From contig CAJQLD010000021.1 in the NCBI GenBank assembly GCA_905479095.1, positions 36,837-100,836 of the forward strand: a stretch of DNA of 64,000 bases, in the 5' to 3' direction. The DNA is from an uncultured Flavobacteriaceae bacterium (GTDB lineage Bacteria > Bacteroidota > Bacteroidia > Flavobacteriales > Flavobacteriaceae). Each line of letters begins with the position of its first letter. The stretch's first letter is position 1. Shown piece by piece: positions 21,628 through 38,684 of this stretch. Under the pieces are notes generated by a model, which did no database searches, was not told where the DNA came from, and worked only from the letters and a program-made list of their open reading frames with translations. The position numbers and the translations under genes are program-made.

Positions 21628-21745
21628 ATCGTCCAAATACCCTATTTAAGTCGATAGCTTTTATTTATAGTGACAATTCAATAATCTGTATATCAATATT
21701 TTATAAAGATCATTTAAACTAAAAATTTAGGGGTGCATTAAAACA

Positions 21746-22846: not shown

Positions 22847-22919
22847 AGGTTTTGAGTTTCTATACAAAGTGAAATTACCTTTTTTTTTATAATATCTTAA
22901 TTTTCACATCAAAAATATT

Positions 22920-23001
22920 GATCCAAACTTCGGTATTGAATGGCTTCTAACTTGGCAACTCATCTAAAAATAAACTTCATTATAAGATAGTGAAAGCTCA
23001 C
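22920..23001 (-). pseudogene. Collapsed relic of comM/yifB
   Basis: 22920-22947 matches comM 38705-38732 at 27/28 nt (EAIQYRSLD); 22953-23001 matches comM 39297-39346 at 40/50 with a 1-nt deletion (GEISLSHNGVLFLDELP region). Confidence 0.85.
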
Positions 23002-23180
23002 TTTAGAGATGGCAATTCCCTGCACAGGCAAAAACGAACAAGATTACAGAGTGCATTCCTGCTAACTTTGCTTCATGAGTCGCATTCACAGATACACGCA
23101 TGATACATCCTTAGTAGCGAGCTCAAGTTGCGTATACAAAATGTTAAGTGTTTCATTTAACCATATAAAAAGACAAAAAA

Positions 23181-25244
23181 TTAATGTGTTTCGTTTTTTG
23201 ATTTCATAAATAGAGGGGTTGCACATAAATACCATTTTAACTTAAAACCAATTTCGCTAAAGTTGAAACCTGCAGCAGTTGCTGATGCAATATCACTATG
23301 CAAGCCAAAGAGATTAGCTGTAAACCTATTGGAGATATTGTAACCTAATTTACCCTGAAATCTAAATGTATTTTGCCGCTCTTGGTCTTCAACAAACTGT
23401 AATCCAGTTGCAAGGTTTAGATTGTAAAACCATTTTCCAGTTTGATTTTTCACAAGATCCACAAATACCTCAACAACATTAAATTTTTCTGGGCTAAAAT
23501 AAATAACCGGCACTTGATCTTTAAATGTTATGTATTGGTAATTTAAGCCTGTTTTAAGCAACGGTTTATCAAAAAGGTTATAATACACCGAAGTGAATAG
23601 TAAATGCTTCTGGTTGCTGTCATTTTGCCAAGAGTAATTGTATTGCGTATACCAACCTAAATTAAAATTAGAATTTACATTGTAATTTGCATATAAGGTG
23701 TTTTGCACAATTTCTCGGTTTAGTAAATCGGCATTAAAATCTTGCCATTCGCGTTTATAGCCAAGGTCTAAAGTTTGCAGTTTAAACGGTTTTGTTTTAA
23801 AAACGATATTTGTTAAAAACTGTGTGTAATTAGTTGTTTTTGCATTCACATCAGTCACACCAATATTTGTTTTAATAGCTATTTTTGGATGCAGTAAGTA
23901 GTTAAAACCAAATAACAAATTATTTGCTTTGGCTTTGTTAGTGGTGACTTTGTTTTTAGAATTTCTATAACTATACAAACCATTGACTTGTAACTTTGTA
24001 GATAATGGCACAGTGACGTTTGTTGTTTCGGTAAAAGCCTCATTATTTCCATTGTCAAAACTATAGGTCGTTTTTGTTTCAAAAAAAGGCGTAAACTGTT
24101 TGTCTAATATGTTTACAAAGTTTTCAGCATCTTTTTGGTTTTTAAAAATGGACAATGTTTTATAAACTGCTCGATAAGCGTCGTTGTACAAACCGAGCGC
24201 TTTTTGTGCATTGGCCTTCCCTAGATTTCCATCAAAAGAGATGCTGTCGTTTGTTAAAATGGTGTTGTAATCTTTAAGACTTTTTTTGAAATCTCCTTTA
24301 TAGGTATTTAAAGTGGCACGTAAGGCTAAAACCCAATTTTGGTTTGGCTTTGTGAGTATTAAATCCCTAATTAATGATCTAGCTGTTTTATACTTTTTAT
24401 TCCAAATTAAAGCTTGTATGTAACGTTCTGTTGTTTGTTGTGTTTGTGCTTCATTCATAGACGTTAATCCATCAAAAGCTTCTTTACTTATTTTAAGTGC
24501 ATCCTTTTCTTTTCTATTTAAATGCGAGACTAATGCCAAACCATTTAATGCTGTGATTTTTTGACCTGGTTGTTCTGCGATAAGATTATAGCACTCTTTT
24601 GCTTTTTCTAATTGATCTGAAATTAAATATAAATTAGCAAGATTCAGTAAGGTATCGATATCATTATTAAAGAGACGTAAATTTTCTTTTAACAAGTTTT
24701 CTGCTTGCGTATATTCTTGTTGCTGTTGTTTTTGGTAAGCATATCCTAAATACATGTATTTTTTAGAATTCAATGCATTTAAATTATTGGGCTTTACAAC
24801 TAATGCTTTATCAACATATATTAAGGCATTTTCGTATTCTTTTAAATTTGATAATGTGTTTGCATAACTTAAGAGTGCTGGAAAACTTTTAGGCTCTTCA
24901 TTTACTAATATTTTAAAATATTTCTTAGCTTCTTCAAACTTATCATTCCATAACAAAGATTCTCCATAATTCAATTTTACTTCAAAATCATCATTATAAT
25001 TTTCCAATAAATTTATAAAAATCGCAGTGGCTTTTTCAGGATTCCCGTTTAAACCAACAGCACGTCCAAAACACAAACGAGCCGTTTTATTTTGGGCATG
25101 ATCATTTAAGATATTTTGAAAAAATAATTCAGCGTTTTGATATTCTCCAGCTTCTAAATAAGCAAAACCTTTTTGCATATCTTGAGAGAACATAAATAGA
25201 GAAAACGTCGTGCAAAAAAGCAAGAGATAGGGATTGATTTTCAT
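23181..25244 (-). CDS. Secreted TPR protein with probable C-terminal outer-membrane beta-barrel
   Basis: Signal peptide MKINPYLLLFCTTFSLF from ATG 25244; multiple TPR-like helical repeats; last ~280 aa have an alternating aromatic/hydrophobic beta-strand pattern ending GFKLKWY. Confidence 0.7.
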   Translation of the reverse strand: MKINPYLLLFCTTFSLFMFSQDMQKGFAYLEAGEYQNAELFFQNILNDHAQNKTARLCFGRAVGLNGNPEKATAIFINLLENYNDDFEVKLNYGESLLWNDKFEEAKKYFKILVNEEPKSFPALLSYANTLSNLKEYENALIYVDKALVVKPNNLNALNSKKYMYLGYAYQKQQQQEYTQAENLLKENLRLFNNDIDTLLNLANLYLISDQLEKAKECYNLIAEQPGQKITALNGLALVSHLNRKEKDALKISKEAFDGLTSMNEAQTQQTTERYIQALIWNKKYKTARSLIRDLILTKPNQNWVLALRATLNTYKGDFKKSLKDYNTILTNDSISFDGNLGKANAQKALGLYNDAYRAVYKTLSIFKNQKDAENFVNILDKQFTPFFETKTTYSFDNGNNEAFTETTNVTVPLSTKLQVNGLYSYRNSKNKVTTNKAKANNLLFGFNYLLHPKIAIKTNIGVTDVNAKTTNYTQFLTNIVFKTKPFKLQTLDLGYKREWQDFNADLLNREIVQNTLYANYNVNSNFNLGWYTQYNYSWQNDSNQKHLLFTSVYYNLFDKPLLKTGLNYQYITFKDQVPVIYFSPEKFNVVEVFVDLVKNQTGKWFYNLNLATGLQFVEDQERQNTFRFQGKLGYNISNRFTANLFGLHSDIASATAAGFNFSEIGFKLKWYLCATPLFMKSKNETH

Positions 25245-25287
25245 TGGTAATTTTTGATAGTTCAAGTTAAACATTATAAGCGATTCA

Positions 25288-25317
25288 TTCATCTATAGAT
25301 AATGTCCTCTCATCGAA
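25288..25317 (+). promoter_or_regulatory. Candidate LytTR-type tandem box A
   Basis: TTCATCTAT-N12-CTCATCGAA, 21-bp period, in the divergent TPR/flippase promoter. Confidence 0.6.
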
Positions 25318-25499
25318 ATTAAATTGATTTCTAAAGATATCTGGGTAATATTTATACCTGAAATTAACCTAAATACAATTTTGGTTTATACGTTTTGAAG
25401 CACAATCCCCTATATCATTTTTAGCATAAAGAATAGTGATTGAATTTAGAAACACTACGAATGTATTAACCAAGGCTAATTTCTTAATCAAAATAAAAA

Positions 25500-26738
25500 A
25501 TGCAAATCATCTCATTTATACGTTCAAAAAAGATATCGGATGAACAATTATTTATGTTGAGCGTACTGGTTGTTAATGCAGGTAATTATATATACAATCT
25601 TATTCTTGGTCGAATTTTAGATCCAGGACAATTTGCAGATGCAGCGGTCTTAATTACTTTTTTATCTGTTCTATCCTTTGTCGCGATGACTTTTCAATTA
25701 GTAACTGCAAAATTTTCAGTCGTATTTGAAACTAATTTATTTATGATTTTTATTTCAAAGGTTTATAAGAATGCTCTTTTTGTCGGAATTAGTTTTGGAG
25801 GTATCATTATTATTTTTTCAAAACAATTACAACAAATATTAAATACTTCATCTTCAAATATGTTTACTGTTTTCGGAATTGGGATGCCATTATACTTTTT
25901 AATGAGTGTCAATAGAGGCGTTTTTCAAGGAAAAAAAGCATTCAAGTATTTATCAATTACCTATCAATCTGAAATGTTGAGCAGACTGGTCATCACATTA
26001 GGATTGCTACTCGCATTTAACATACAATCGTCACTCGTAATCGCTCTTGGAATTTTCTTCTCCTTTTGTTTTGGTTTAATCCCGTTTAACTTTAAAAGTT
26101 TAAGCTTTAAAACATCTTTAGGCATTGCCCAAAATCAATTAAAATTAGTGAGAAAATTTTTTATAATTACTGCCTTTTATGAATTAACTCAAATTATAAT
26201 TAACAACAGTGACATTCTTTTAGTGAAGCATTATTTTGAATCGTATGAAGCTGGGTTGTATGCCTCTTTGGCAATAATTGGTAGAATTGTATACTTTATA
26301 GCTTGGATGTTTGTGATGTTATTACTCCCTACCGTTGTTGAACTTAAAAAAGAGGGAAAAGCAACAGCTCCAGTTTTATTTAAATATGTTGGGTATATAA
26401 CTATTGTAGCAGCTGTAATTATTTTGAGTTATGCATTATTTCCAAAAACAGCAATTAGCTTATTATTTGGTGAGAGTTATTTAGCGATGGCTCCCTTACT
26501 TTGGAAATATGCTTTAGCAACTGGGTTATTCGCCATTTCAAACATTTTTGCTTATTACTATTTGTCATTAGATCGATTTATGCCTGTTGTGTTGTCTGGT
26601 ATTTTTGGAATGTTACAAATGGGGCTCATCATATTTTTTCATGATACTTTAGAACAAGTCGTTCACATTCAAATTATAGCAATGATGTTATTACTCGTTT
26701 TTCAAATTATTTATTTCGCTTTAGATTCTAAATCATAA
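25500..26738 (+). CDS. Oligosaccharide flippase (Wzx/MOP-like)
   Basis: About 12 TM segments; NYIYNLILGRILDP, NNSDILLVKHYF, AGLYASLAIIGRIV flippase-like motifs. Confidence 0.8.
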   Translation: MQIISFIRSKKISDEQLFMLSVLVVNAGNYIYNLILGRILDPGQFADAAVLITFLSVLSFVAMTFQLVTAKFSVVFETNLFMIFISKVYKNALFVGISFGGIIIIFSKQLQQILNTSSSNMFTVFGIGMPLYFLMSVNRGVFQGKKAFKYLSITYQSEMLSRLVITLGLLLAFNIQSSLVIALGIFFSFCFGLIPFNFKSLSFKTSLGIAQNQLKLVRKFFIITAFYELTQIIINNSDILLVKHYFESYEAGLYASLAIIGRIVYFIAWMFVMLLLPTVVELKKEGKATAPVLFKYVGYITIVAAVIILSYALFPKTAISLLFGESYLAMAPLLWKYALATGLFAISNIFAYYYLSLDRFMPVVLSGIFGMLQMGLIIFFHDTLEQVVHIQIIAMMLLLVFQIIYFALDSKS

Positions 26739-26792
26739 TTATCATGACGTTAAACCCACAATTCAATTGCTATTATAAATAGAAAAAAAAGC

Positions 26793-28010
26793 ATGAAACT
26801 AGCTATCGTAACAGCATTTCCGCCAAGTAAAGTCACATTAAATGAATATGCTTACCATTTAGTAAAACACTTCAGACTAAAAAAAGACATTTCAGAAATT
26901 ATTTTGTTAACGGATAAAACAAAAGGTAAAAAAGATATTTTATTTACTAAAAAAGGGTGTGGCATTACAATCAAAGAATGTTGGTCGTTTAATAGCTATG
27001 CTAACATTATTAATATCACAAAAGCAATTAATAAAACAAAACCAGACGCCGTATTATTTAACTTACAGTTCATGAAATTTGGGGATAAAAAAATAGCTGC
27101 TGCATTAGGGTTATTTTTACCTTTTGTCTGTAAGTTAAAAGGAATCCCAAACATTGTTTTACTGCACAACATATTAGAAGAAGTCGATTTAGAATCTGCT
27201 GGATTTACAACTAACAAATTTCTACAAAAAATATACGGTTTTATAGGGACGACATTAACAAAAATAATATTACTAGCAGATGTTGTTTCGGTCACCATTC
27301 AAAAATATGCTACGACTTTGGAAGAAAAGTATAGTGCTAAAAACGTGATTTTAATACCACATGGAACCTTTGAAGTATCTGACGAAAAACCAGATTTTAC
27401 GGTTCCTAAAGGACCTTTACAAATAATGACTTTTGGGAAATTTGGAACTTACAAAAAAGTAGAGTTATTAATTGAAGCCGTAGAGGTTGTAAGAGATTCT
27501 ACTGGATTAGATCTAGAAGTGGTGATCGCAGGCACCGATAATCCAAATGTAAAAGGGTACTTGGCAAAAGTACAACAAGAGTATAACCATGTACCCCAAA
27601 TCAGATTTACAGGATACGTGAAAGAGTCTGAGGTGCCTACTCTGTTTAAAGAAAGTGCTGTAGTTGTATTCCCATATACATCTACTACAGGAAGTTCTGG
27701 TGTATTACATCAGGCAGGAAGTTATGGCAAAGCTGTTGTAATGCCCTATTTAGGGGACTTAGCATTACTAGTAAAAGATGAAGGTTATCTAGGTGAGTTC
27801 TTTGAACCAAGATCAGTTGAAAGCTTAGCAAAAGCAATAGAAGCAATTGTAACTAATGACTACTACAGAAAAGATTTAGGAAAGGCTAATTATAAAGCTG
27901 CGACGGCATATCCCATGAGTAAAATTACAGACATGTATCTCAATGAGTTCAATTCAATTATAAACAACAAAAAGCAGAGAAAAATACAATCCATTACTGG
28001 CCGGAGATAA
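26793..28010 (+). CDS. GT4 family glycosyltransferase (GT-B)
   Basis: LIPHG, FGKFGTYKKVELLIEA, RFTGYV, VVFPYTSTTGSSGVLHQAGSYGKAVV. Confidence 0.85.
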   Translation: MKLAIVTAFPPSKVTLNEYAYHLVKHFRLKKDISEIILLTDKTKGKKDILFTKKGCGITIKECWSFNSYANIINITKAINKTKPDAVLFNLQFMKFGDKKIAAALGLFLPFVCKLKGIPNIVLLHNILEEVDLESAGFTTNKFLQKIYGFIGTTLTKIILLADVVSVTIQKYATTLEEKYSAKNVILIPHGTFEVSDEKPDFTVPKGPLQIMTFGKFGTYKKVELLIEAVEVVRDSTGLDLEVVIAGTDNPNVKGYLAKVQQEYNHVPQIRFTGYVKESEVPTLFKESAVVVFPYTSTTGSSGVLHQAGSYGKAVVMPYLGDLALLVKDEGYLGEFFEPRSVESLAKAIEAIVTNDYYRKDLGKANYKAATAYPMSKITDMYLNEFNSIINNKKQRKIQSITGRR

Positions 28011-29511
28011 ACTTAAATGCCGCTTTTTTTGTTCCATTGTCATCAATAAATCCATAATATTTTTGAGCATTTTTACGCCAAGGTAGCCCTCCTACAACTT
28101 CATTTGGAATGTTTACAAAGTCATATAAGGTCCAAGACATAAATTGTATATCATTTTCAGAGATGATCTTTTGAGCTTTTTCATAATAATCGGCTTGATC
28201 ATTATTAGAATTTCCAAATGGGTTCCATAAACCACTATAAGAGGACATTCCAAATTCACCCATAACTAAAGGCTTGTTTGGAGCTTTTGCTTTAAGAGAT
28301 TTTATGGAGGCGGCAAGGTTATCTAAATCTTCATAATAATGAAAAGAGATAAAGTCAACTTTATCTTTTAAAATTGCTGCGCTTTGTATGTCGGACCATC
28401 CAATAGTGACTGCATGAGCGGAATCTATAGATTTAACCAAATCAATCAAAGCATTTAACCATGCGATAACATTCAATTCACCTCTTGAATCAAAGTCTAA
28501 GTTAGGCTCATTTTTAATATCCCAAGCAATAATTGCTTCATGATCTTTTAGTTCAGATACAATCGTTTTTGCATGCTGCATATTCAAGGTCCAATTTAAG
28601 ACTGAATAATCACCATAAAAGTCAAAAAGAGTGACCACAACTTTTAAATCATTTTCCTCTGCTGCATCTAATGTTTGCTTTAATTTATCTAATTTTTCTG
28701 TAATAACATTTGCTTTACCAAAATCATCATATTGCACAAAAATACGAACCGTAGTTAATCCGCTATCTCTAATAATCTTAAAGTCGTTTGAAATCGTGTT
28801 TTTTGAAAAAGCACCTCCAAACATATCCCATGGTGTATCTTTTGGATAATAATTAATCCCTCTTATGTTTAAATTGCTCGATGCAACTTTAGCGTTTTCT
28901 TTCTGATAATTTTCTGTGGATACTTTTACCATATGCCTAATTCTCCAAAAACCGTCTTCCAATAAAAGTATGATTTTGTAAGTGGATTTTTCTGTGGTTT
29001 CAAAAATTAATTTTTCATCTTTAAATACACGTTTGTACTCTAAAACATCAGTATCTGTAAGTATTGCTAAGTGTCCATCTTCGCTATAAAAATTTAAAGT
29101 TGGATGGTGCTCTAAAGTTGTAGATTCAATGGTGATTCTATTTTTTATATTTAAATCAATAAAATCAAACCTATTTTCACGAGCGTTATCCGTAAAGTAG
29201 TCCTTAATGACGTCTTTGGTATTCGTCTTATAAGCAACCAGGCTTACATACCATGCATCTAAATAATCATTTTCTAAAGTGTTTAGCGTTACTTCGTCCA
29301 TTGATCTTCCTTCATTATTTAAGGGAGTCCAATCAACTTTAGGGATGTATTGCTCTATTTTTTTTAATTCTGTATGAAGCATTTTACTTCTATCTGCTCC
29401 TGTATTTAGATATACAAACACTGCACTAATCCCAGATATAATAATTACAATAACTAGGAGATATGAGCCTAATAAAAGACTACGTACTATATTTTTATTT
29501 AAACCTACCAT
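27994..29511 (-). CDS. Membrane-anchored clan GH-A glycoside hydrolase (GH5/GH2-like TIM barrel)
   Basis: N-terminal TM anchor; RGINYYP, WDIKNEP acid/base Glu, ISFHYY, VMGEFG nucleophile Glu. Confidence 0.8.
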   Translation of the reverse strand: MVGLNKNIVRSLLLGSYLLVIVIIISGISAVFVYLNTGADRSKMLHTELKKIEQYIPKVDWTPLNNEGRSMDEVTLNTLENDYLDAWYVSLVAYKTNTKDVIKDYFTDNARENRFDFIDLNIKNRITIESTTLEHHPTLNFYSEDGHLAILTDTDVLEYKRVFKDEKLIFETTEKSTYKIILLLEDGFWRIRHMVKVSTENYQKENAKVASSNLNIRGINYYPKDTPWDMFGGAFSKNTISNDFKIIRDSGLTTVRIFVQYDDFGKANVITEKLDKLKQTLDAAEENDLKVVVTLFDFYGDYSVLNWTLNMQHAKTIVSELKDHEAIIAWDIKNEPNLDFDSRGELNVIAWLNALIDLVKSIDSAHAVTIGWSDIQSAAILKDKVDFISFHYYEDLDNLAASIKSLKAKAPNKPLVMGEFGMSSYSGLWNPFGNSNNDQADYYEKAQKIISENDIQFMSWTLYDFVNIPNEVVGGLPWRKNAQKYYGFIDDNGTKKAAFKFISGQ

Positions 29512-30722: not shown

Positions 30723-33700
30723 TAATTTAGGTTTCCAATGTAAGAGTTCATTTCAATTTTTATATAACTAAAGTCTGGATGCTTGATTTTTTGTAATTCA
30801 GAACTTGAATGATTTTCGATTCTATTCGGTATTATTTTATTTGAAATATGGGCATTAGGCAACCCATTTACAAAAACATTCTCCATAGACTCACTAATGA
30901 TTTTTATTTTACCATTCTTCAAAATTTGATATTCAAAACCTTTTTTTCGCTGTTGTCTGATCCCCTCTTTTAGAAATAAATGATCGACCCAAAGCATTGT
31001 TTTGTTTTGGTCGTAATAAGAGATTAAAAGTTGAGGCACTGTAATCTCCTGAATGCCGCTATTAAATAAATTTCCGCTAATAATGTCTCCATTTATATCT
31101 AATTGACTTAAGACACTCTTTTTATATAAATCAGATCCAGAAACATTTCCCGCTACTTGTAAATTGAATTTTGTAGGATGTTCTTTAAAATCAACAGGCG
31201 TAAATTCATCTGGATTAAAGGTGTCGGGTATAGAATCTTGCGTTTTTGACCATGCAATACCTTCAAAATTAATTCTAAAAGCACTTGACTCTTTAGGAAA
31301 TAATTTATGTTTAACATGGTATTTAGCGTTATACGTTGCAAGCTCTTTATTGTGATCATCATACAATGTGCCTTTAAGCACAATATCAGCAGGTACATTA
31401 TCTATATTTTGAATTTCTCCAATGATGGCAAAATGAGTCCCGTATTTTACAAGTCTTGCTGATAACACTTCTAAAACAGGTTGTTTTAAAATATCTTCAT
31501 GATGCGTTTGTTCTGTTGTTATACGTCTTCTTCCTTGATTAAAATAACTAGTCGTATTATTTGAAAAAAGTTGATCGGGTGGTAAATCAGTGTCTAAGCC
31601 TTCTGATTTTATATACCATTTCTTATGATATTTAGATACTGACTTATAATCAATTTTTCGTATTTTTTCGAGAGGTGTAATCCAATCAGCAATTACTTTG
31701 ACGGTTGCCAAACTATCATTTCTACTCGTAATAATTGTTTCAATGGCATCCAGTTTTGCATAACTATTTAGCAAACCTCCTGAGAGGGAGGTCTCAAGCA
31801 TATATTGTGAAATTGAAATATTACTTGTGGGATCTATCAAACTATATGCTATTTCAAACTCTTTGAAATCTAACGCGTCATAATAGGCAATTATAGCGTT
31901 TTCTGGACTTCGTTGTGAGTCATTTTTTAAATAGAATTGATAAAGATTATAAAAGACAATTACAACTAAAAAAATTGACCAAAAGTGTGTGATTTTCAGG
32001 ATTGATTTTGAGAACTTCGAATAACGATTAGAAAATTTTAAAAATTCAGGTGTTTTTTTATGTCTTGTTTTTAAAGTATTTACCAATAACATTTGTATGT
32101 TTAAAATAAACGCTATTAATACCGTTAAAAATGGCACTATTCCCCATACAATTTTTTGCCATTTTGCGACATCATCCTTGGGTAAAATAGATGAAATTGG
32201 TGATACATTCAATCGCTCCCAAACCATAATTCCATTTTCTAATTTCTGCAATCGTTGCCAACCACAGAAATAGAGTATCGGATCATAAAACTTATCATTA
32301 GAGAAAATATATTTAAGATTATATTTATCTGGAGTTGTCAAAAACTGCTGTAATGAACCAATTCCTGCGACCCCTTTAAATTTTGAGTTTTCTAAACGCT
32401 CTATAGGTCTAGTGGTTAGTTCTGGTAATCTTCGCGCCGAATGATAATTTCCGTCGACTGTCATTGCATTAGTTTGCGCACTTAACCATGCCATTTGATC
32501 ACCAAAACCTAAAGTTAAAAACCGCCATTTATCGTGATCATCTTGATTTAAGAAGTTCACAATAGGGAGCATCTCAATTTTTTGCGGCTGGAATGGCCTA
32601 AAGTAACCAAGACTCATGGTGAAAACAGTCATAAAGATAAATAGTCCAGCAAGGATTCCTCCAATAATACGATGGTAAATTGCTCCAAAACGCACTCGAA
32701 TCAAGGCTTTTAAATCCCCTTCTACAAAACGATACGCAAATTCACCTAGTAGGGGTAACGACATAATAGAAGCCCAAAGCGTAAATCTATCTAATGTAAG
32801 AATGTTAAATGCTGTTTCACCTAAAACCATTCTTGGAATTGGGGTCGTTCCGCCAGTTCCTAAAATCGTTAGTAGTGTTATCGATAAACCGAAAAAGAGA
32901 TAACGTTTACTATAATATCTATAAAAAATATATGGCAATAGGATGAGTAGAATTCCCCAAGGGATTAAAAAGAACATTAGACCAGAAGACGTAATTTCTA
33001 AAAAATTATCTCTTGATCCGTGCGGAATGGGTACTTGAGTTATTGGATTATTTTTTGAATTAATCCAATATGGAAAAATACAGCCAATAATAATAACTAG
33101 TGAAGCCATTCCAAAACTAATAATCCTGTTAAAGAGTTTAAAGAAACTATTTAGAAAAATTTTAAACGAAACTTCTTTTAGTGTGTCTACTTGATCTCGA
33201 GACACATCTAAAATAACCATTCCTATTAATGGAAAGACAAAAAATACCATTCCGAATATAGGGGTCACATGATGAGAAGTAACAGTCACAGCAATTAATG
33301 ACAAGGAAGTTGCTAAATATCTTGATCTACCTGTTTTAAGCCATAAATAAATTTCTGGTAACGCATGCATTAAAATAGAAATCCCAACAATACTTGGCAA
33401 TTGACCAAATACGTGAAGCGTTTCAACAAATGATGACGAAAATACTGCTAAAATAGAGGCATAACCCGCAACCGTTTTATTTGATGTAATTAATAACGAA
33501 AACCGATACACTCCAGTTATAAAAAGGACTATTGAAATTAGAGCGACCGAGAACAATCCAAACTTTAACCCCCCCATCATCGACAGTAGTCCAATAGATT
33601 GATGAACTAAAGGAGGATAGCTCATAACCGTAAAGCCTGTATACCACTCATAATTCCAAGGTTCAAACCAACTATTGGCATAATGGTCCGAAAAAAATAA

Positions 33701-33811
33701 ATGGATCAAAGCATCATAGGTACTTTCTAAAGTGAAAAACATGGAAGTACCATGAAACACAACCCCAATTAGTAGTGCAACAATCAAATATTTATTGGTG
33801 GTTTCTTTCAT
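30722..33811 (-). CDS. Large polytopic membrane protein, GT-C-like N-terminus with extracytoplasmic C-terminal domains
   Basis: A dozen or more TM segments in the first ~630 aa; YDALIH...WNYEWYTGFTVMSYPPLVHQ first loop resembles PTPS-related/YfhO-like GT-C proteins. Confidence 0.6.
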   Translation of the reverse strand: MKETTNKYLIVALLIGVVFHGTSMFFTLESTYDALIHLFFSDHYANSWFEPWNYEWYTGFTVMSYPPLVHQSIGLLSMMGGLKFGLFSVALISIVLFITGVYRFSLLITSNKTVAGYASILAVFSSSFVETLHVFGQLPSIVGISILMHALPEIYLWLKTGRSRYLATSLSLIAVTVTSHHVTPIFGMVFFVFPLIGMVILDVSRDQVDTLKEVSFKIFLNSFFKLFNRIISFGMASLVIIIGCIFPYWINSKNNPITQVPIPHGSRDNFLEITSSGLMFFLIPWGILLILLPYIFYRYYSKRYLFFGLSITLLTILGTGGTTPIPRMVLGETAFNILTLDRFTLWASIMSLPLLGEFAYRFVEGDLKALIRVRFGAIYHRIIGGILAGLFIFMTVFTMSLGYFRPFQPQKIEMLPIVNFLNQDDHDKWRFLTLGFGDQMAWLSAQTNAMTVDGNYHSARRLPELTTRPIERLENSKFKGVAGIGSLQQFLTTPDKYNLKYIFSNDKFYDPILYFCGWQRLQKLENGIMVWERLNVSPISSILPKDDVAKWQKIVWGIVPFLTVLIAFILNIQMLLVNTLKTRHKKTPEFLKFSNRYSKFSKSILKITHFWSIFLVVIVFYNLYQFYLKNDSQRSPENAIIAYYDALDFKEFEIAYSLIDPTSNISISQYMLETSLSGGLLNSYAKLDAIETIITSRNDSLATVKVIADWITPLEKIRKIDYKSVSKYHKKWYIKSEGLDTDLPPDQLFSNNTTSYFNQGRRRITTEQTHHEDILKQPVLEVLSARLVKYGTHFAIIGEIQNIDNVPADIVLKGTLYDDHNKELATYNAKYHVKHKLFPKESSAFRINFEGIAWSKTQDSIPDTFNPDEFTPVDFKEHPTKFNLQVAGNVSGSDLYKKSVLSQLDINGDIISGNLFNSGIQEITVPQLLISYYDQNKTMLWVDHLFLKEGIRQQRKKGFEYQILKNGKIKIISESMENVFVNGLPNAHISNKIIPNRIENHSSSELQKIKHPDFSYIKIEMNSYIGNLN

Positions 33812-33873
33812 CGATAATCTTCACAGTATCAGCAATGTAAATATAAATTATTCTAATAGCATTTCAATTGCTT

Positions 33874-33903
33874 GTCATCTAAAGCAATTGACCATTCGTC
33901 TAC
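33874..33903 (+). promoter_or_regulatory. Candidate LytTR-type tandem box B
   Basis: GTCATCTAA-N12-TTCGTCTAC, 21-bp period, in the divergent GT-C/REC-GT2 promoter. Confidence 0.6.
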
Positions 33904-33986
33904 ACATAATAATTAATTAATCTAAAGAACAATTTTAGACCCCTCTTGTATAGTATTTTAGAAGTCTCTAAATAAAATATCATACT

Positions 33987-35201
33987 TTGAAAATATTAGC
34001 GATAGATGATCAAAAACTAGTGTTGCTTCCAATAGAAAAGCGGTTAAATGAACTTGAATATAAAGTCAAAACTGAAACAAACTCTATTAAAGCAATAGGC
34101 ATTTATCATTCGTTTAAACCCGATTTGGTAATCGTTGATATTAACATGCCTAAAATTTCAGGATTAGAAATTGTGAAATATATTAGAAATTCCGAAAATC
34201 CGAAAACACCTATATTAATTTTATCTGGCGATACAAATGATAACGTCATAATTGAAGGGTTTGATTTAGGAATTAATGATTACATGAAAAAACCAATAAG
34301 CTTAAATGAAATATGTGTTCGAATAAAAAAATTAATTGGAATTCCAAAACAAGTAAATACCGTGAAAACGATCAGTCAAGTAATCATCCAACAACGCTGC
34401 GTAGGAGTCGTAATTCCCTGTTATAACGAAGAGCAACGTTTGTTAAGTAAAAAGTTTACTAATTATATTGATAAAAACTCTGGCTATCATCTATGTTTTG
34501 TAAATGATGGTAGTAAAGACAAAACTTTAGAAGTCCTTAAGAAATTACAAAAAGGCAGAGAAGAGTTTATAACGATTTATGATTGCAAAAAAAATGGTGG
34601 AAAAGCCGAAGCTGTTCGTTTGGGAATGCTCTACATGGCTAAAAAAGAAGATATCGATTATATAGGTTTCCTAGATGCCGATTTATCGACCAATCTAACC
34701 GATTTTGATGATCTAGTAAAAACAATAGAACATTCTGATTTCAAAATAGTGAGCGGGTCTAGAATTACACGAATGGGAGCAAATATCACAAAAGAGTCCG
34801 CTAGAACCGTTATAAGTTTTACAATTAATTTTATAATTAGAAAAATTTTATCCATGGATTTTAAAGACACACAATGTGGTGCGAAAATATTTCATAAGGA
34901 TATTATCTCAATCGTTTTTAGAGATAAATTTATAACAAAGTGGATTTTTGATGTTGAAATATTTAAAAGAATGTCACAATATTATGGTCTAAAAAAAGCC
35001 AAAACAATGCTTTGTGAACAACCGTTAAAAAAATGGATACATGCTGATGGCTCAAAATTATCTTTAAAAGACTCGTTTAGAATTATAAGTGACTTAGCAC
35101 TAATTGCTTGGGTTTATAGATCAAAAAAAATAAAAAATAAAGCTTTAGCAGAAGCTTTATATACTGACCAAACAGGATCCTACTCCCCTACGGATTATTA
35201 G
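33987..35201 (+). CDS. Receiver domain-GT2 glycosyltransferase fusion
   Basis: TTG start; REC motifs IDD, VIVD51INMP, ILS, KKP; GT2 motifs VVIPCYNEE, FVNDGSKD, NGGKAEAV, FLDADL, DTQCGAK (polyprenol-phosphate sugar synthase-like). Confidence 0.9.
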   Translation: MKILAIDDQKLVLLPIEKRLNELEYKVKTETNSIKAIGIYHSFKPDLVIVDINMPKISGLEIVKYIRNSENPKTPILILSGDTNDNVIIEGFDLGINDYMKKPISLNEICVRIKKLIGIPKQVNTVKTISQVIIQQRCVGVVIPCYNEEQRLLSKKFTNYIDKNSGYHLCFVNDGSKDKTLEVLKKLQKGREEFITIYDCKKNGGKAEAVRLGMLYMAKKEDIDYIGFLDADLSTNLTDFDDLVKTIEHSDFKIVSGSRITRMGANITKESARTVISFTINFIIRKILSMDFKDTQCGAKIFHKDIISIVFRDKFITKWIFDVEIFKRMSQYYGLKKAKTMLCEQPLKKWIHADGSKLSLKDSFRIISDLALIAWVYRSKKIKNKALAEALYTDQTGSYSPTDY

Positions 35202-35247
35202 TACCATTTGAATACTGGATTAAACTATAAATAAATACAGTTAAGTT

Positions 35248-35266
35248 TCAAGCTTTAACAGCTTGA
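35248..35266. terminator. Hairpin between convergent REC-GT2 and LytTR genes
   Basis: TCAAGCT-ttaac-AGCTTGA 7-bp stem. Confidence 0.55.
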
Positions 35267-35277
35267 GAGAACGTATC

Positions 35278-35991
35278 TTATAATAAATTAAGCAGCTTCA
35301 TTAGCTGAGGTCTGTTGGAGCGACTTACGGGAATTACATCTCTTTTTATCAACACACTATTGTCTTCAATATCAATGATTTTTTTGATATTTATAATATA
35401 AGAGCGATGAATTTTTAAAAACAAATGGTCTGGAAGTTTATCTTCTATTTTTTTTAAAGTAGAATGTACCATATAGTTTTTGTTCTCTGTTTTTACATGA
35501 ATATAATCCCCTTTTGCTTCAATGAGGTATATACTAGGAATATCAATTTTAATAAGCCTTCTGTCAATATTAATATACAAATCGTCTGCAGAAGTCCTTT
35601 CTGTTTTTTTTGATGAATCATAAGAATCAACCGATGAATTCTGTTTGTCTGTTGCTTTTTGTAGTGCCTTTTGAAAACGCTCAGGAGCTATTGGTTTCAC
35701 TAAGTAATCTAAAATACAATCGTATTCAAAAGCTTGTATAGCAAAATTTGAATCTGAAGTCGTCAATATTATTTTTGGAGGATTTTTTAATGTTTCAATA
35801 AAATCAAACCCTGTGAAATCTGGCATGTGAATATCTAAGAAAATTAAATCAACCGTATGTTGATTTAAATATTTAATGGCTTGAATTGCATTTGGAAACT
35901 CTTCAATAACATTAAGATTTTCAACTTTAGAACATAACTGTCCAATAATAGCTCTTGCAGTAACCTCATCATCAATAATAATACAATTCAT
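35278..35991 (-). CDS. LytTR family DNA-binding response regulator
   Basis: REC (IIDDE, IFLDIHMP, DYLVKP) plus LytTR (IYLIEAKGDY, FLKIHRSYIIN, IPVSRS). Confidence 0.95.
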   Translation of the reverse strand: MNCIIIDDEVTARAIIGQLCSKVENLNVIEEFPNAIQAIKYLNQHTVDLIFLDIHMPDFTGFDFIETLKNPPKIILTTSDSNFAIQAFEYDCILDYLVKPIAPERFQKALQKATDKQNSSVDSYDSSKKTERTSADDLYINIDRRLIKIDIPSIYLIEAKGDYIHVKTENKNYMVHSTLKKIEDKLPDHLFLKIHRSYIINIKKIIDIEDNSVLIKRDVIPVSRSNRPQLMKLLNLL

Positions 35992-36000
35992 AAATACTAA

Positions 36001-36318
36001 CTATAGTTGTTGTAAATAATTTGTTATGTTAATTAATATAGATTTGAATTCTTGATTAAGGCTTGTATTTCCTTTTAATAAATCGTTTTCAAAAGCTGAA
36101 GCAATTTCATAACTTTTATCAAGACCCAATATACTAATTTTATGCTTAAGTTTATGCACATTATCTGCAGTCAACTTAAAGTTTTTAGCTTTAAAGTTTT
36201 TTAAATATTCTTCTTTCTCTAAAGGAAACTCCATTTTAATTATATTAATTATCTTTTTCTCAAAGGCCGTATCTCCTCCTGACATATTATATATATAAGA
36301 TAAGTTTGGTGTTTCCAT
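36001..36318 (-). CDS. Stand-alone Hpt histidine phosphotransfer protein
   Basis: 105 aa helical protein with VHKLKHKISILG Hpt motif. Confidence 0.85.
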   Translation of the reverse strand: METPNLSYIYNMSGGDTAFEKKIINIIKMEFPLEKEEYLKNFKAKNFKLTADNVHKLKHKISILGLDKSYEIASAFENDLLKGNTSLNQEFKSILINITNYLQQL

Positions 36319-36320
36319 AT

Positions 36321-37535
36321 TTATTTTTTTAACGTAAAATGGAATGTAGTTCCTTTTCCATAATCAGATTCTATCCATATATTTCCATTATAAAGATCTA
36401 TAATTTTTTTGACAATTGAAAGTCCTATTCCTGTAGAATCTTTATGATCATTTAGTGAATGGAAAATTTTGAAAATTTTATCATGGTATTTTTTTTCTAT
36501 TCCAACGCCGTTATCCTTAATTGAAAATTGATAAAACGATTTTTTTTCAGAAACGTCAATTTCTATTAAACCGTTTTTTTTATTATTAAATTTAATCGCA
36601 TTACCAATTAAGTTTTGAAACAATTGCTGAAATTTTGTTCGTTCACCAAAGACAACTGGCAATTTATTCTTAACATTAATTTTAATATGACTTGGAATAA
36701 AAATAATTTTTTTCAAGTCTTCAATAACTATATTTAAATCAACATTTAGTTTTTTAGATTCGTCCAAACTAACACTAGAATACAATAATACATCCGAAAT
36801 CAACAGCTCCATCTTTTCTAAAGTGGATTCGATATGACCAAAGTTTTGAAGACTGTTTTTATCAAATTTTCCTATATTATCTTCTTTTAGCCAACTTACT
36901 AAGGCGTAAATACTACTTAGCGGTGATTTTAAATCATGGGATACAATGTGTGCATATTCTTGAAGTTCATCATTACTCTTTCCAAGTTTCAAAAGTAACT
37001 TTTCTTTTTGGAGTTCAAGGTTTTTAATTTCAGTAATATCCCTAACAATTCCTTGTGCAGCTATGGCTTTATGGTTTTCATCATAAATGATACTTGCATT
37101 AATATGAACTAATTTTTGATCATTTGATTTTGTATTTATTTTAACTTGAAAATTTGTGATCGATCCATTATTAATTAATTTACTGTAACTTTTTTTGACT
37201 TTTTCAACCTCTGAAACATCGACGAGAGTAAAAAGATTAATATTTTCTTGATTGTTGTCATAGCCAAGCAAACTGGTTGCAGGTTCATTCATTTTTATAA
37301 CATTGCCCCTAAGATCCATAACAACATATGCATCTACTATATTTTCAAATACACCTCTCAGTTCAGATGATTTTTCAGCAATTAATTTCTCTAATTTAAA
37401 ATTAGATTTTTTTAGTTTTTGGGTAAGGTCATAGAATTCGGTAGATTTTCCTTCTAAAATTTTTTCAGCAGCTTTTCTCGCCCCTTTCTCACGTTTTAAA
37501 GCTCTTAATAAGATGCCTTCTAGTTGTTGATTCAT
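36321..37535 (-). CDS. Soluble PAS-domain sensor histidine kinase
   Basis: N-terminal coiled coil (REKGARKAAEKILE), PAS, H-box SHDLKSPL, N-box NLIGNAIKF, KDNGVGI, GIGLSIV, GKGTTF; no TM segment. Confidence 0.93.
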   Translation of the reverse strand: MNQQLEGILLRALKREKGARKAAEKILEGKSTEFYDLTQKLKKSNFKLEKLIAEKSSELRGVFENIVDAYVVMDLRGNVIKMNEPATSLLGYDNNQENINLFTLVDVSEVEKVKKSYSKLINNGSITNFQVKINTKSNDQKLVHINASIIYDENHKAIAAQGIVRDITEIKNLELQKEKLLLKLGKSNDELQEYAHIVSHDLKSPLSSIYALVSWLKEDNIGKFDKNSLQNFGHIESTLEKMELLISDVLLYSSVSLDESKKLNVDLNIVIEDLKKIIFIPSHIKINVKNKLPVVFGERTKFQQLFQNLIGNAIKFNNKKNGLIEIDVSEKKSFYQFSIKDNGVGIEKKYHDKIFKIFHSLNDHKDSTGIGLSIVKKIIDLYNGNIWIESDYGKGTTFHFTLKK

Positions 37536-38074
37536 TTATTCTTTGTGATGCTAAATTTGACTTCAGTTCCATCCTCTTTGATTTTTTCTAAATCAATGAC
37601 TGCTGTAGAATTAAAATACTCAAAGGTTTTATTCATCAGACCTAAGCCAAAATGATGCATAGCCCTACTAGACTTGTAAATCATTATTAATGAATTTTCT
37701 GTTTTTTCAATGACCTCAAATGTTGGTAATTCCGCATCTGGGTAAATTTTTCTAACCTCAACATGAATATGGTTTTCAATAGATGAAATCATTTCTATAG
37801 GGTCTTTATAAATTGCTAAAAGTCCAGGATAACTACTTTCAATTACACTAAAAAAATGCTCCGCATACACAAGTAAAAGGGCGTCTATAGAAATTTTTGT
37901 ATGCGCACTTAGATGCTGAAGTAATTGTAACATTTCAGAAAATTCATAGGTGCCAACAGAAGTATAGATGCCTTCAGACTCTAGTTTTGAAGCACTGATA
38001 ATTTTATCAACAACTTCCAATCCAAATTTAGTTTCTACAAGCTCTAAAAATTCAGTAAGTACGATTCCTTTCAT
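37532..38074 (-). CDS. H-NOX (heme NO/O2-binding) sensor
   Basis: MKGIV N-terminus, YTSVGTY, proximal His104 in HIHVEVRKIYP, Y133-x-S-x-R137 heme motif. Confidence 0.93.
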   Translation of the reverse strand: MKGIVLTEFLELVETKFGLEVVDKIISASKLESEGIYTSVGTYEFSEMLQLLQHLSAHTKISIDALLLVYAEHFFSVIESSYPGLLAIYKDPIEMISSIENHIHVEVRKIYPDAELPTFEVIEKTENSLIMIYKSSRAMHHFGLGLMNKTFEYFNSTAVIDLEKIKEDGTEVKFSITKNK

Positions 38075-38483
38075 TTGTGTTTTTTAATTCATTTATACTC
38101 CAATACGCTAATAGTTTTTCAATTTTAGATACATAATCTTCATATTTTAGAGGTTTGAGTACGTAGCCTGCAATCCCAATTTCATAACAAGCAATCAAAT
38201 CTTTTTGATTATTGGAGGTCGTTAGTATTATTGTTGGGATATATTTTAATGTATCATCATTTTTTAAAATAGATAAAAACTCGATCCCATTTATTTTGGG
38301 CATGTTTAAGTCTAATAAAATAATATTCGGGAGATTGGTTTTTTGTGCTAATAGTTTTAAATCATCTTCGACATTATTAGCGCCAATGATTTCATGATTT
38401 AGTTTTAATTTTGAGATGGTTCTATTAAACTTCATAACTTCAATAGCATCATCTTCAATAAGTAGGATTTTAAGGGTTTTCAT
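38052..38483 (-). CDS. Single-domain response regulator (Rcp1-like)
   Basis: LLIEDD, ILLDLNMPKING, ILTTS, YVLKP. Confidence 0.93.
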   Translation of the reverse strand: MKTLKILLIEDDAIEVMKFNRTISKLKLNHEIIGANNVEDDLKLLAQKTNLPNIILLDLNMPKINGIEFLSILKNDDTLKYIPTIILTTSNNQKDLIACYEIGIAGYVLKPLKYEDYVSKIEKLLAYWSINELKNTNERNRTY

Positions 38484-38563
38484 TTCAATAAAAAATTAAA
38501 TAATTTCTAAAATAAATATATCCTACGGGTGGTCCTATATATTTTGTTTGATGGTTGGGAAGT

Positions 38564-38594
38564 GTCGATGAATAGCTAAAATATGGCGATGAAT
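38564..38594 (-). promoter_or_regulatory. Candidate LytTR-type tandem box C
   Basis: Minus strand ATTCATCGCC-N11-ATTCATCGAC (9/10 identical, 21-bp period), 80 bp upstream of the signalling operon. Confidence 0.65.
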
Positions 38595-38684
38595 TGTAAT
38601 GCTGATTTTGGCGGTTTATTTGAAACTCGATTTATAAGTCTATTTCTTAGTTGTCTACTTAGTTGCTCAATTTTAAGAAGCACC

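Follow-up and report, generated by a model that had tools for sequence, protein, structure and literature searches.

A candidate H-NOX-headed phosphorelay linked to a surface-glycan synthesis and export cluster in marine flavobacteria

In this paper we looked at a locus within a 64,000-nucleotide stretch of DNA from an uncultured Flavobacteriaceae bacterium (the window). It rather likely works as a single functional unit, in which a phosphorelay headed by an H-NOX sensor controls a cluster for surface-glycan synthesis and export. The genes present, their folds, the conservation of catalytic and phospho-acceptor residues, the linkage across genomes and the shared cis element were computed directly (Table 1). 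Sequence comparison suggests that the relay and the seven-gene glycan cluster, which share the cis element, form one conserved unit, present in roughly one in four marine flavobacteria. Such a unit would probably serve as an on/off switch for a coat or slime polymer in bacteria without c-di-GMP. The gene map agrees with a preliminary description of this DNA on twelve open reading frames, their coordinates and five transcription units, and Pfam HMM annotation together with structure prediction bore out all of the domains that it had assigned to the twelve genes. Its statement that the locus has no GGDEF/EAL protein also holds: a domain search found neither domain in any gene of the locus, and the genome as a whole (90% complete) yielded no GGDEF.

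Table 1. Features of the locus, with positions in the window
Feature	Position	Strand	Basis
28-nt direct repeat, left copy	22920..22947	+	read in sequence
Predicted TPR + 16-strand beta-barrel outer-membrane export porin	23181..25244	-	Pfam TPR families, AlphaFold, Foldseek
Tandem boxes A, before porin gene, 21 bp apart	25286..25319	-	second-best matrix match, pattern
PST/MOP-family flippase-like membrane protein	25500..26738	+	Pfam Polysacc_synt_3, E 2e-10
GT4 glycosyltransferase	26793..28010	+	Pfam Glycos_transf_1, E 1e-18
Membrane-anchored clan GH-A glycoside hydrolase	27994..29511	-	Pfam GH2_C, Glyco_hydro_cc (TIM barrel)
Anchored periplasmic protein, tandem Ig-like (Big_1/invasin D3) domains	29505..30722	-	Pfam Invasin_D3, weak
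1029-aa GT-C-fold membrane glycosyltransferase, unnamed family	30722..33811	-	AlphaFold, Foldseek
Tandem boxes B, before GT-C operon	33872..33927	-	alignment of 62 intergenic regions; 41-bit match
REC-GT2 fusion, ArnC/GtrB-like polyprenyl-phosphate glycosyltransferase domain	33987..35201	+	Pfam Response_reg, Glycos_transf_2
REC-LytTR response regulator	35278..35991	-	Pfam
Free-standing Hpt phosphotransfer protein	36001..36318	-	Pfam Hpt, weak (E 0.008)
Soluble PAS-HisKA-HATPase histidine kinase, non-hybrid	36321..37535	-	Pfam
H-NOX haem gas sensor	37532..38074	-	Pfam HNOB, E 7e-38
Single-domain receiver, signalling operon gene 1	38052..38483	-	Pfam
Tandem boxes C, inverted, before signalling operon, 21 bp apart	38562..38595	+	matrix, pattern

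Co-occurrence of the signalling and glycan genes had been set beforehand as the point on which the proposal could fail, and the link was found. Of 401 Flavobacteriaceae genomes surveyed, 141 have HNOB and 97 the GT-C protein; the GT-C gene is full-length in 92. H-NOX lies on the same contig as the full-length GT-C gene, 2.7-32 kb off, in 75 of these 92 genomes (a hand tally of two result tables), a count that overstates independence because the genomes are related. In 12 genomes, most of them fragmented assemblies, H-NOX is found on a different contig, and in one (G137) the two genes are 2.3 Mb apart. The remaining four have no H-NOX, and three of them keep the orthologous LytTR gene ~8-11 kb from the GT-C gene; relay and cluster are kept without H-NOX in G173 and G007. 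An orthologue of REC-LytTR (E<=1e-75) was detected in 138/401 genomes, including GT-C genomes without H-NOX. At least four gene orders preserve the link. The relay adjoins the porin gene in G166, G229 and G001 and REC-GT2 in this window, a reduced relay stands next to GT2 in G081 and G270, and the cluster is shuffled in G001.

The preliminary description also reported matching tandem boxes in all three promoter regions, which was confirmed by a position matrix and by a pattern. The matrix was trained only on the REC-GT2/GT-C intergenic regions of 62 orthologous promoters (~185 bp each), the alignment of which shows conserved tandem boxes with a core T(A/C)GA(C/T)GAAT and a spacing of 21 bp. 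LytTR regulators such as AgrA and ComE bind direct repeats with a 21-bp period. The three best matrix matches in the 64-kb window, at 33872(-), 25286(-) and 38562(+), are the three promoter regions. The pattern MGAYGA-N15-MGAYGA, composed after the sites had been seen, has three matches in the window, one in each promoter region, versus 0.03 expected; genome-wide the strict pattern gives 15 matches versus 7 for the control and is therefore not specific at that scale.

Boxes A are CTATAGATGAATG (16.4 bits) and the weaker ATTTCGATGAGAG, at a position matched in 43/65 orthologous loci. The porin reading frame is open up to 25292, and its start is most likely Met17 (25244), because the orthologues are 686-688 aa long and residues 1-18 are poorly modelled; this start places boxes A 42-75 bp upstream. 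Region B contains three boxes, CTTTAGATTAATT, GTGTAGACGAATG and CTTTAGATGACAA, spaced 21 and 22 bp, so that the 21-bp period is inexact, followed downstream by a -7-like TAnnTTTA element; they are matched in 65/76 loci, these sites being the training set of the matrix. Boxes C, GTGTCGATGAATA (16.6 bits) and the weaker ATGGCGATGAATT, lie ~80-110 bp upstream of the signalling operon, and most of the module loci examined have them at this position, likewise inverted, ahead of the REC gene. Examples of loci with an equivalent of boxes C are G001, G081, G206, G173, G040, G152 and G229. In regions A and C of the window the partner box is weak, at less than 4 bits in each case.

Scanning 80 loci (1.7 Mb) with the matrix gave 136 pair matches. 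Of these, 65 precede the GT-C gene and 43 lie at the start of the porin gene; ~17 fall at the junction of PST and GT4, at least 7 stand ahead of REC, and ~4 are located elsewhere. Across the 1.7 Mb the boxes are almost confined to sites ahead of the operons of the relay and of the glycan genes. This argues against the option that relay and glycan genes are mere neighbours, the boxes being those of a different regulator or a part of promoter architecture. This option seems very improbable to us, although ~53 H-NOX genomes carry the relay without a full-length GT-C cluster, which means that the relay is not dedicated to the cluster, and although it would also fit the distance in G137 and the five LytTR regulators of the genome, because of which REC-LytTR is assigned as the putative box binder by position only. 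Apart from the boxes, the linkage in several gene orders speaks against it, as does G040, where the GT-C and H-NOX genes are both truncated and all that lay between them has gone in a single deletion. Relay and cluster have moved jointly in the studied genome as well, within an island of 15.8 kb that sits at the 3' end of comM and is bounded by two 28-nt repeat copies; the left copy and the comM 3' end (38705-38732) are identical at 27/28 positions. The GC content is 0.28-0.33 within the island versus 0.36-0.38 outside, both junctions are spanned by metagenome contigs, and in G229 the flanking gene adjoins comM with the insert absent. In two metatranscriptome runs the coverage was flat and DNA-like.

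The relay of this window is trimmed to five genes and placed on the GT2 side; most relatives have a bigger one, which includes a multi-PAS kinase of 788 aa, a second kinase and a FIST sensor protein. The phospho-acceptor sites are conserved: D11, D58 and K110 are invariant in 19 orthologues of the single-domain receiver, and in REC-LytTR the invariant residues are D53 and K99. The weak Pfam call of Hpt is upheld by His55 within VHKLKHK, which is invariant in 17 orthologues, and its gene is always located between the kinase and LytTR genes in the locus comparison. The kinase translation has the H-box HDLKSPL and no hydrophobic segment was found in it; its gene overlaps that of H-NOX by 4 nt.

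Another question is which ligand the sensor binds. The H-NOX shares ~85% identity over 179 aa with the crystallised H-NOX of Kordia algicida (Ka; PDB 6BDD; PMC7356049) and has the proximal His104 and Y133-S135-R137 (YxSxR). A molecular-dynamics study found NO to be preferred by the Ka pocket and names Tyr140 as a distal hydrogen-bond donor for the O2-sensing Cs H-NOX only (PMC7356049); the characterised stand-alone H-NOX/kinase pairs are all NO-responsive (PMC8738867). These data favor NO over O2, CO or haem redox state, and make it rather unlikely that the locus is not specifically NO-controlled or that H-NOX is only one of several inputs. Several inputs would, however, fit the larger relay of most relatives, the two genomes that retain relay and cluster without H-NOX, and a box pair elsewhere in the genome that precedes a hybrid PAS kinase which could feed Hpt.

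Turning to the glycan genes, the 1029-aa protein has no match in Pfam or NCBIfam. Its AlphaFold model (pLDDT 89.5, pTM 0.88) retrieved only GT-C enzymes as top Foldseek matches in the PDB (STT3, PglB, DPY19, ArnT and EmbA-C; E 3e-7, probability 1.0), so that the earlier "GT-C-like" reading can now be given as a GT-C fold. Asp33 and His37, directly after TM1, are invariant in 45/45 sequences, and the C-terminus consists of NTF2-like and beta-sandwich domains that are taken to be periplasmic. The family comprises 935 clusters at 50% identity. The Ig-like gene overlaps both neighbours through stop/start codons, and the Atlas structure neighbours of its product are Big_1/Invasin_D3 proteins. The hydrolase has an N-terminal hydrophobic anchor and NEP and GEFG motifs in its translation, and its PDB sequence matches are GH158 and GH5 mannanases. 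The PST/MOP flippase-like gene is conserved within the cluster, and GT4 shows 71-81% identity in 80 loci. The porin model has 22 TPR helices and a 16-strand barrel (pLDDT 86); its best PDB matches in Foldseek are BcsC 9b8a, PelBC 9h80 and PgaA 4y25 (barrel TM 0.76), in line with the export role read earlier from TPR plus barrel, and the match to the NCBIfam PgaA porin region (E 6e-8) is below cut-off. The model thus identifies the protein as a predicted BcsC/PgaA/PelB-type EPS export porin.

The GT2 domain had been described as a polyprenol-P-sugar enzyme, and its nearest PDB sequences are indeed the polyprenyl-phosphate glycosyltransferases ArnC and GtrB, which have C-terminal membrane helices whereas none are evident in the REC-GT2 sequence. 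All 72 orthologues share D7, D8, D51, S80, K102, D230xD232 and DTQCG, and each has an intact receiver; G081 and G270 have a GT2 without receiver. In G050 the same relay and boxes stand ahead of a different glycan operon with a REC-Bac_transf fusion, so that a receiver fused to a lipid-carrier-priming enzyme recurs.

The same regulon might also serve another glycan chemistry: a Wzx/Wzy-like or Pel-like polymer made by GT4 and PST with a priming enzyme encoded elsewhere, while GT-C, instead of polymerising, would transfer or ligate en bloc (OST/PglB-like) or act as a decorating enzyme (Gtr/ArnT-like) supplied by REC-GT2. The combination of GT2, GT-C and flippase is the three-component decoration logic of GtrA/B/*, ArnC/ArnT and CsbB/YfhO, and the best folds of GT-C include the oligosaccharyltransferases STT3 and PglB, users of lipid-diphosphate-linked glycans. 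The locus of a distant, 46%-identical homologue has Bac_transf in the place of GT2, two GT4s and an acetyltransferase, as in a repeat-unit pathway; lipid-diphosphate-linked units may therefore be the substrate of the GT-C enzyme. We regard this chemistry as possible but the less favored option: Wzy, Wzz, Wza and a priming phosphoglycosyl transferase are all missing from the conserved seven-gene core, translational coupling joins the GT-C/Ig-like/hydrolase trio, which is conserved together with a BcsC-like porin, and the GT-C gene, ~80% identical across genera, is the best conserved gene of the cluster.

With GT-C as the polymer-building enzyme, we infer the following model, including its order of phosphotransfer and sign of regulation. 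H-NOX would bind a diatomic gas, most likely NO, and modulate the adjacently encoded soluble PAS kinase, from which phosphate may pass to the free receiver, the free Hpt and then REC-LytTR, and probably also to the receiver of REC-GT2. Control would thus act at two levels, transcription through LytTR and, probably, enzyme activity through REC-GT2. The predicted targets of phosphorylated LytTR are the tandem 13-nt boxes at 21-bp spacing ahead of three units, namely its own operon, the operon of GT-C, Ig-like protein and hydrolase, and the porin gene; in relatives those ahead of GT4 would be a further target. Donor, acceptor and product are likewise putative: REC-GT2 may load a sugar onto polyprenyl phosphate at the cytoplasmic face, and the GT-C enzyme may build or extend a periplasmic polymer from the lipid-linked sugar. 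The Ig-like protein and the hydrolase would act on this polymer and the porin would export it, while a lipid-linked primer or unit could come from, or be flipped by, GT4 and the PST protein.

No published description of a system with the same make-up was found in the literature searched. The preliminary description knew of no characterised pathway of this kind and had overlooked the control of syp in Vibrio fischeri. There, the Hpt of SypF (and LuxU) links HnoX-HahK to SypG, at the level of transcription, and to SypE, post-transcriptionally, and the syp polysaccharide is controlled in this way without c-di-GMP (PMC12369376). Since this is a control at two levels like the one proposed here, the control logic of the locus is, by analogy, not new. 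The parallel with Pel drawn earlier stands for the architecture and not for the components: no PelG-family match was found in the locus, PelC/D/E are absent from it, and the hydrolase belongs to clan GH-A, in contrast to GH114/CE4 in Pel. With its coupled GT-C/Ig-like/hydrolase trio and BcsC-like porin, the cluster is closer to BcsA/B/Z/C than to a decoration system.

The twelve open reading frames mapped in this part of the window fall into five transcription units, which are listed below with the other coordinates. The domains named for these proteins in the preliminary description were all borne out by Pfam and NCBIfam, except for the 1029 amino acid membrane protein, which matches no family. 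The H-NOX matches HNOB (Pfam PF07700, E 7e-38, 130.6 bits against a cut-off of 25.5) and is ~85% identical over 179 aligned residues to PDB 6BDD, the crystallised Kordia algicida H-NOX (Ka H-NOX; used as in PMC7356049). Its proximal His104 and the YxSxR haem-propionate motif (Y133-S135-R137) align with this structure, and molecular dynamics of the close homologue (PMC7356049) suggest NO-selective ligand binding indirectly. The molecule name of PDB 6BDD and 6BDE is '2,4-dihydroxyhept-2-ene-1,7-dioic acid aldolase', yet the sequence is that of an H-NOX and PMC7356049 treats 6BDD as the Kordia algicida H-NOX, so the name was apparently deposited in error.

Coordinates of the features in the window and in loci of other genomes or contigs
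Feature	Sequence	Position	Strand	Remarks
Twelve-gene locus	window	23181-38483
Unit 1: porin gene	window		-
Unit 2: PST flippase-like gene and GT4	window		+
Unit 3: GT-C, Ig-like protein, hydrolase	window		-	stop/start overlaps between genes
Unit 4: REC-GT2	window		+
Unit 5: REC, H-NOX, kinase, Hpt, LytTR	window		-	H-NOX overlaps the genes on both sides
Box A, before the porin gene	window	25286	-
Box B, before the GT-C operon	window	33872	-
Box C, before the signalling operon	window	38562	+
Direct repeat, first copy	window	22920-22947
Direct repeat, second copy	window	38705-38732
Flanking gene	window	21746-22867
Flanking gene	window	38685-40223
Two box pairs, DUF4114 and CAP-domain genes	L085 (G229)	3170-6726		between porin and LytTR
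Box pair before hybrid kinase gene	L105 (G000:C23:31000-36500)	2378-2404
GT-C and H-NOX relics	L097 (G040)	9599-10484		convergent
Alternative glycan operon	L092 (G050)	13900-18707
Relay without H-NOX gene	L096 (G173)	12343-15295

The kinase is soluble and non-hybrid, with HisKA and HATPase domains and an H-box (Pfam and translation), and the output regulator is composed of a receiver (PF00072) and a LytTR domain (PF04397, E 1e-20). The Hpt protein matches Pfam weakly, but its His55 is invariant across orthologues, as are D58 of REC and D53 of the LytTR regulator; D51 of REC-GT2 is invariant in 72 orthologues. The residues of a His-Asp-His-Asp phosphorelay are complete (kinase H-box, receiver Asp, Hpt His, output receiver Asp), and we infer the order of phosphotransfer from the presence of a non-hybrid kinase together with a free REC and a free Hpt. 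In characterised pairs the NO-bound H-NOX inhibits its kinase (PMC8738867, PMC12369376); by analogy, such inhibition here would cut the phosphate flow to both outputs. No GGDEF protein was found in the whole genome (90% complete), and Pfam detects no PilZ or other c-di-GMP-binding module in the twelve genes. To our knowledge, the phylum Bacteroidota lacks c-di-GMP, and we know of H-NOX signalling worked out in Proteobacteria only, mostly via c-di-GMP or quorum sensing. In two runs labelled as metatranscriptomes (X11 and X20), positions 21000-40500 are covered at a flat depth that resembles the study's DNA runs; the reads probably stem from DNA and are uninformative on transcription.

The 1029 amino acid protein was modelled from an alignment of 50 diverse homologues (pLDDT 89.5, pTM 0.88). 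In a Foldseek search of the PDB its top 17 matches are all GT-C enzymes (STT3, PglB, DPY19, ArnT), with Emb proteins further down; the best match has an E-value of 3e-7 and a probability of 1.0, and TM-scores by target are 0.35-0.53. Asp33 (in TYDA) and His37, immediately past TM1, are invariant in 45 of 45 sequences, and Asp33 provides the conserved acidic residue of the first extracytoplasmic loop of GT-C enzymes. The C-terminal ~400 residues are predicted to form NTF2-like and beta-sandwich domains. The protein does not belong to any named GT-C family (PMT, STT3, ArnT, YfhO and others) by Pfam or NCBIfam, and its language-model neighbours, PMT_2 and PTPS_related, stand at 0.90-0.92 only. 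Seven of eight distant relatives likewise match nothing in these databases and the eighth gives one sub-threshold DUF6541 match, while the whole family comprises 935 clusters at 50% identity without a Pfam model. Around the distant homologues the pair of GT-C and Ig-like genes is kept, with other two-component systems alongside, and the hydrolase is found in the first locus only. The protein represents an uncharacterised, widespread GT-C family, which is paired with an export porin.

This porin is modelled with 22 TPR helices followed by a 16-strand barrel, and its Foldseek matches are BcsC, PelBC/PelB and PgaA. The hydrolase is anchored at its N-terminus and carries the clan GH-A motifs NEP and GEFG. 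The PDB sequences nearest to the GT2 half of REC-GT2 are ArnC (7e-7) and GtrB (1e-5), and the receiver and GT2 catalytic residues, including D230xD232, are invariant in the 72 orthologues. Reading the translation by eye, we found no C-terminal TM hairpin, as no hydrophobic stretch of ~20 residues follows the catalytic domain. The pairing of a GT2 with a GT-C argues for a polyprenyl-monophosphate sugar as the donor; lipid-diphosphate-linked units are favoured, on the other side, by the resemblance of the fold to OST enzymes and by the Bac_transf gene of a distant locus.

One of the key questions is whether the relay and the glycan genes belong together. The seven glycan genes are clustered in essentially all 80 fetched loci, with the GT-C gene 73-85% identical across genera. 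Loci of ±10 kb made the relay seem mostly absent at first, which was corrected by whole-genome searches of 401 Flavobacteriaceae: the relay lies mostly 11-20 kb off, past the porin gene. HNOB was found in 141 and the GT-C protein in 97 of the 401 genomes. The linkage was tallied by hand in the 92 genomes with a full-length GT-C gene; in 75 of them H-NOX is on the same contig, 2.7-32 kb from GT-C (with peaks at ~11-12 and ~16-17 kb on the side of the porin gene), in 12 it is on a different contig, mostly in fragmented assemblies, in one (G137) it is 2.3 Mb distant and in four none was found, counts which overstate the statistics since related genomes are not independent. The variety of gene arrangements holds irrespective of counting, and among the fetched examples the link is kept in at least four gene orders. 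Three of the four genomes without H-NOX (G007, G173, G362) keep the orthologous LytTR gene ~8-11 kb from the GT-C gene; in this LytTR search seven candidates were scored per genome of the 401, and absences or distant matches (G226, G015, G292) are unreliable. The relay is also found without a full-length glycan cluster, in ~53 genomes. Chance adjacency of relay and glycan genes was considered as an explanation and rejected.

The promoter regions can be compared as well. The intergenic region between REC-GT2 and GT-C is ~185 bp in most loci, and its alignment over 62 loci reveals three conserved boxes at a spacing of 21-22 bp and, after them, a -7-like element. A matrix was built from the two best boxes of this alignment, and its three top matches in the window are boxes A, B and C, one per promoter region. 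The pattern MGAYGA-N15-MGAYGA occurs at exactly these three sites in the 64 kb, where 0.03 are expected, with the pattern devised after the sites had been seen. Genome-wide the strict pattern is not specific (15 matches against 7 in the control), and these matches probably lie mostly in coding DNA. When 1.7 Mb of related loci were scanned for box pairs, 136 matches were obtained: 65 lie before the GT-C gene, the region on which the matrix was trained, 43 where the porin gene begins, ~17 between PST and GT4, at least 7 upstream of the relay operon and ~4 elsewhere. Most relay loci examined, even those without the glycan cluster, have a strong pair in inverted orientation ~60-110 bp before REC, the first gene. 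The box reads T(A/C)GA(C/T)GAAT and occurs in both orientations relative to the target gene; in the window each region holds one strong box (16-20 bits) with weaker partners. Generic repeat finding and a simple pair scan recovered the pattern in part, and phylogenetic footprinting was needed.

LytTR regulators are known to bind direct repeats with a 21-bp period, and sites of this type, direct repeats ~21 bp apart before target promoters, were found here and are conserved. By position the boxes can be assigned to the LytTR regulator of this locus as the putative binder, in a genome that carries five LytTR genes. In genome G229 two box pairs precede genes for a 940 amino acid DUF4114 protein, which ends in a T9SS sorting tail, and a 166 amino acid CAP-domain protein; both are likely further members of the regulon. 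Elsewhere in the genome of the window, a hybrid PAS-PAS-HisKA-HATPase-REC kinase of at least 762 amino acids is encoded ~90-120 bp downstream of a box pair with the same inverted geometry; this kinase may feed into the free Hpt as a second input.

One possible option, which we put forward tentatively and at rather low probability, is that the locus encodes a further route of exopolysaccharide assembly, with polymerisation by GT-C in the periplasm, BcsC-type export, a receiver-gated GT2 and an NO relay controlling both GT2 and transcription. The GT-C enzyme would polymerise the chain in the periplasm from a polyprenyl-monophosphate sugar and pass it to the BcsC-type porin. Phosphorylation of the receiver fused to the GT2 that charges the lipid carrier would gate the flux as early as the first committed step, and the nitric-oxide-sensing relay would govern both this step and transcription. 

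For the crystallised flavobacterial Ka H-NOX, which is physiologically unassigned, the analysis provides a concrete and testable output. It consists of one defined regulator, its own DNA box and some dozen target genes, and about a quarter of the Flavobacteriaceae genomes sampled have it. The carriers colonise algae and particles, which are places of NO production.

In its logic, the closest characterised system is that of V. fischeri, in which HnoX-HahK acts through SypF (Hpt)/LuxU on SypG and SypE and hence on the syp polysaccharide locus (PMC12369376, citing Thompson et al. 2019). In both, H-NOX is found beside its kinase, an Hpt step is used, no c-di-GMP enzyme lies in the path, and two receiver outputs act on one exopolysaccharide locus, at and below transcription. 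Here a LytTR protein takes the place of the sigma-54 activator SypG as output regulator, and the second output receiver is fused directly to the glycan enzyme, where V. fischeri uses the SypE/SypA partner switch. Instead of hybrid kinases, the relay has a kinase, a receiver and an Hpt as individual small proteins, and its genes are physically linked to those for the glycan. The host belongs to Bacteroidota, and the glycan machinery is unrelated, being centred on GT-C with a BcsC-like porin. Neither SypG nor SypE/SypA has a counterpart here, and since the output and glycan proteins are not homologous, the likeness is one of logic (PMC12369376). The H-NOX/HnoK networks of Shewanella, Vibrio cholerae, Legionella and Pseudoalteromonas also have a stand-alone H-NOX that regulates an adjacent kinase and biofilm-related behaviour, but they act via c-di-GMP enzymes (REC-EAL, HD-GYP, GGDEF) or via LuxU/LuxO of quorum sensing (PMC8738867), whereas the outputs here are LytTR and REC-GT2.

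The glycan genes resemble synthase-dependent export systems (BcsA/B/Z/C, PgaA-D, Pel) in the TPR and 16-strand porin with the BcsC/PgaA/PelB fold, in the periplasmic glycoside hydrolase and in GT4 and the PST-type protein, which parallel PelF and PelG. As in cellulose synthesis, where BcsB follows BcsA, an anchored beta-rich periplasmic partner is encoded directly after the membrane enzyme. However, the central membrane enzyme has a GT-C fold instead of being a GT2 synthase, there is no PilZ/c-di-GMP receptor, and the hydrolase is of clan GH-A and not GH8, GH114 or GH153. Membership in Pel was rejected, as the twelve genes have no PelG-family match, no PelA (GH114 and deacetylase) and no PelC, PelD or PelE; by Pfam, the Pel-equivalent genes are Polysacc_synt_3 and the GH-A barrel only. 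Three-component lipid-linked glycosylation (GtrA/GtrB/Gtr*, ArnC/ArnT, CsbB/YfhO) also has an ArnC/GtrB-like GT2 beside a GT-C with a first-loop Asp, here divergently encoded, and a flippase-like gene in the cluster. The GT2 here differs by its N-terminal receiver and by lacking evident C-terminal membrane helices, the GT-C is 1029 amino acids long with ~400 residues of extra C-terminal domains, and the export porin and hydrolase are absent from decoration systems. The regulons of AgrA, ComE and AlgR are LytTR regulons with direct repeats spaced by 21 bp. They share with this locus the REC-LytTR architecture, imperfect direct repeats at a spacing of ~21 bp ahead of the target promoters, as well as a site in front of the regulator's own operon, but the input here is a gas-sensor phosphorelay via Hpt instead of a peptide-sensing HPK10 kinase, and the box sequence is its own. 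Literature searches brought up neither a paper dealing with this locus or with the role of H-NOX in Flavobacteriia, nor the combination of LytTR, a receiver-fused glycan enzyme and a BcsC-like porin together with a new GT-C family.

Variant loci are found in relatives. In genome G050, which has no GT-C cluster, the same tandem boxes head another glycan operon, encoding UDP-glucose dehydrogenase, an epimerase, a single REC, a REC-Bac_transf fusion (a priming enzyme) and an OEP protein, and adjoining the H-NOX relay and a small STAS gene. It is possible that receiver-fused enzymes that prime lipid carriers (REC-GT2, REC-Bac_transf) are a direct post-translational control point of glycan synthesis. 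In G040 a truncated GT-C (residues 5-157) meets a truncated H-NOX (residues 1-145), the relic of a single deletion that took out all genes which typically lie between GT-C and H-NOX; REC-GT2 and REC survive along with their box sites. In G081 and G270 (loci L088 and L098) the cluster is divergent, with a GT-C 52% identical and a 243 amino acid GT2 without a receiver; a REC/H-NOX/PAS-GAF-kinase trio adjoins this GT2, Hpt is not nearby and the orthologous LytTR is 7-20 kb off. G173 retains the glycan cluster as well as the box site ahead of REC, but its relay has no H-NOX gene, and a gap of only 242 bp separates REC from a 765 amino acid kinase.

The relay in the window is a trimmed five-gene form, with a 404 amino acid single-PAS kinase and without the FIST protein and the second kinase, and lies on the REC-GT2 side, a gene order unseen in the other loci examined. 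The unit of 15.8 kb is flanked by a 28-nt direct repeat, which matches the comM 3' end at 27 of 28 positions, has a lower GC content than its flanks and contains no integrase gene. Contigs of several metagenome assemblies span both junctions, and in G229 the flanking gene is directly beside comM with the site uninterrupted. The GT-C protein of the window is 85% identical to those of other lineages and only 73% to that of the same-genus G166, a pattern that fits joint acquisition of the relay and glycan genes. The GT-C of Portibacter lacus (L036) and of a Saprospiraceae MAG (L040/L054) is 77-79% identical to that of the window despite the different family, the level of many Flavobacteriaceae, which suggests horizontal transfer of the glycan cluster.
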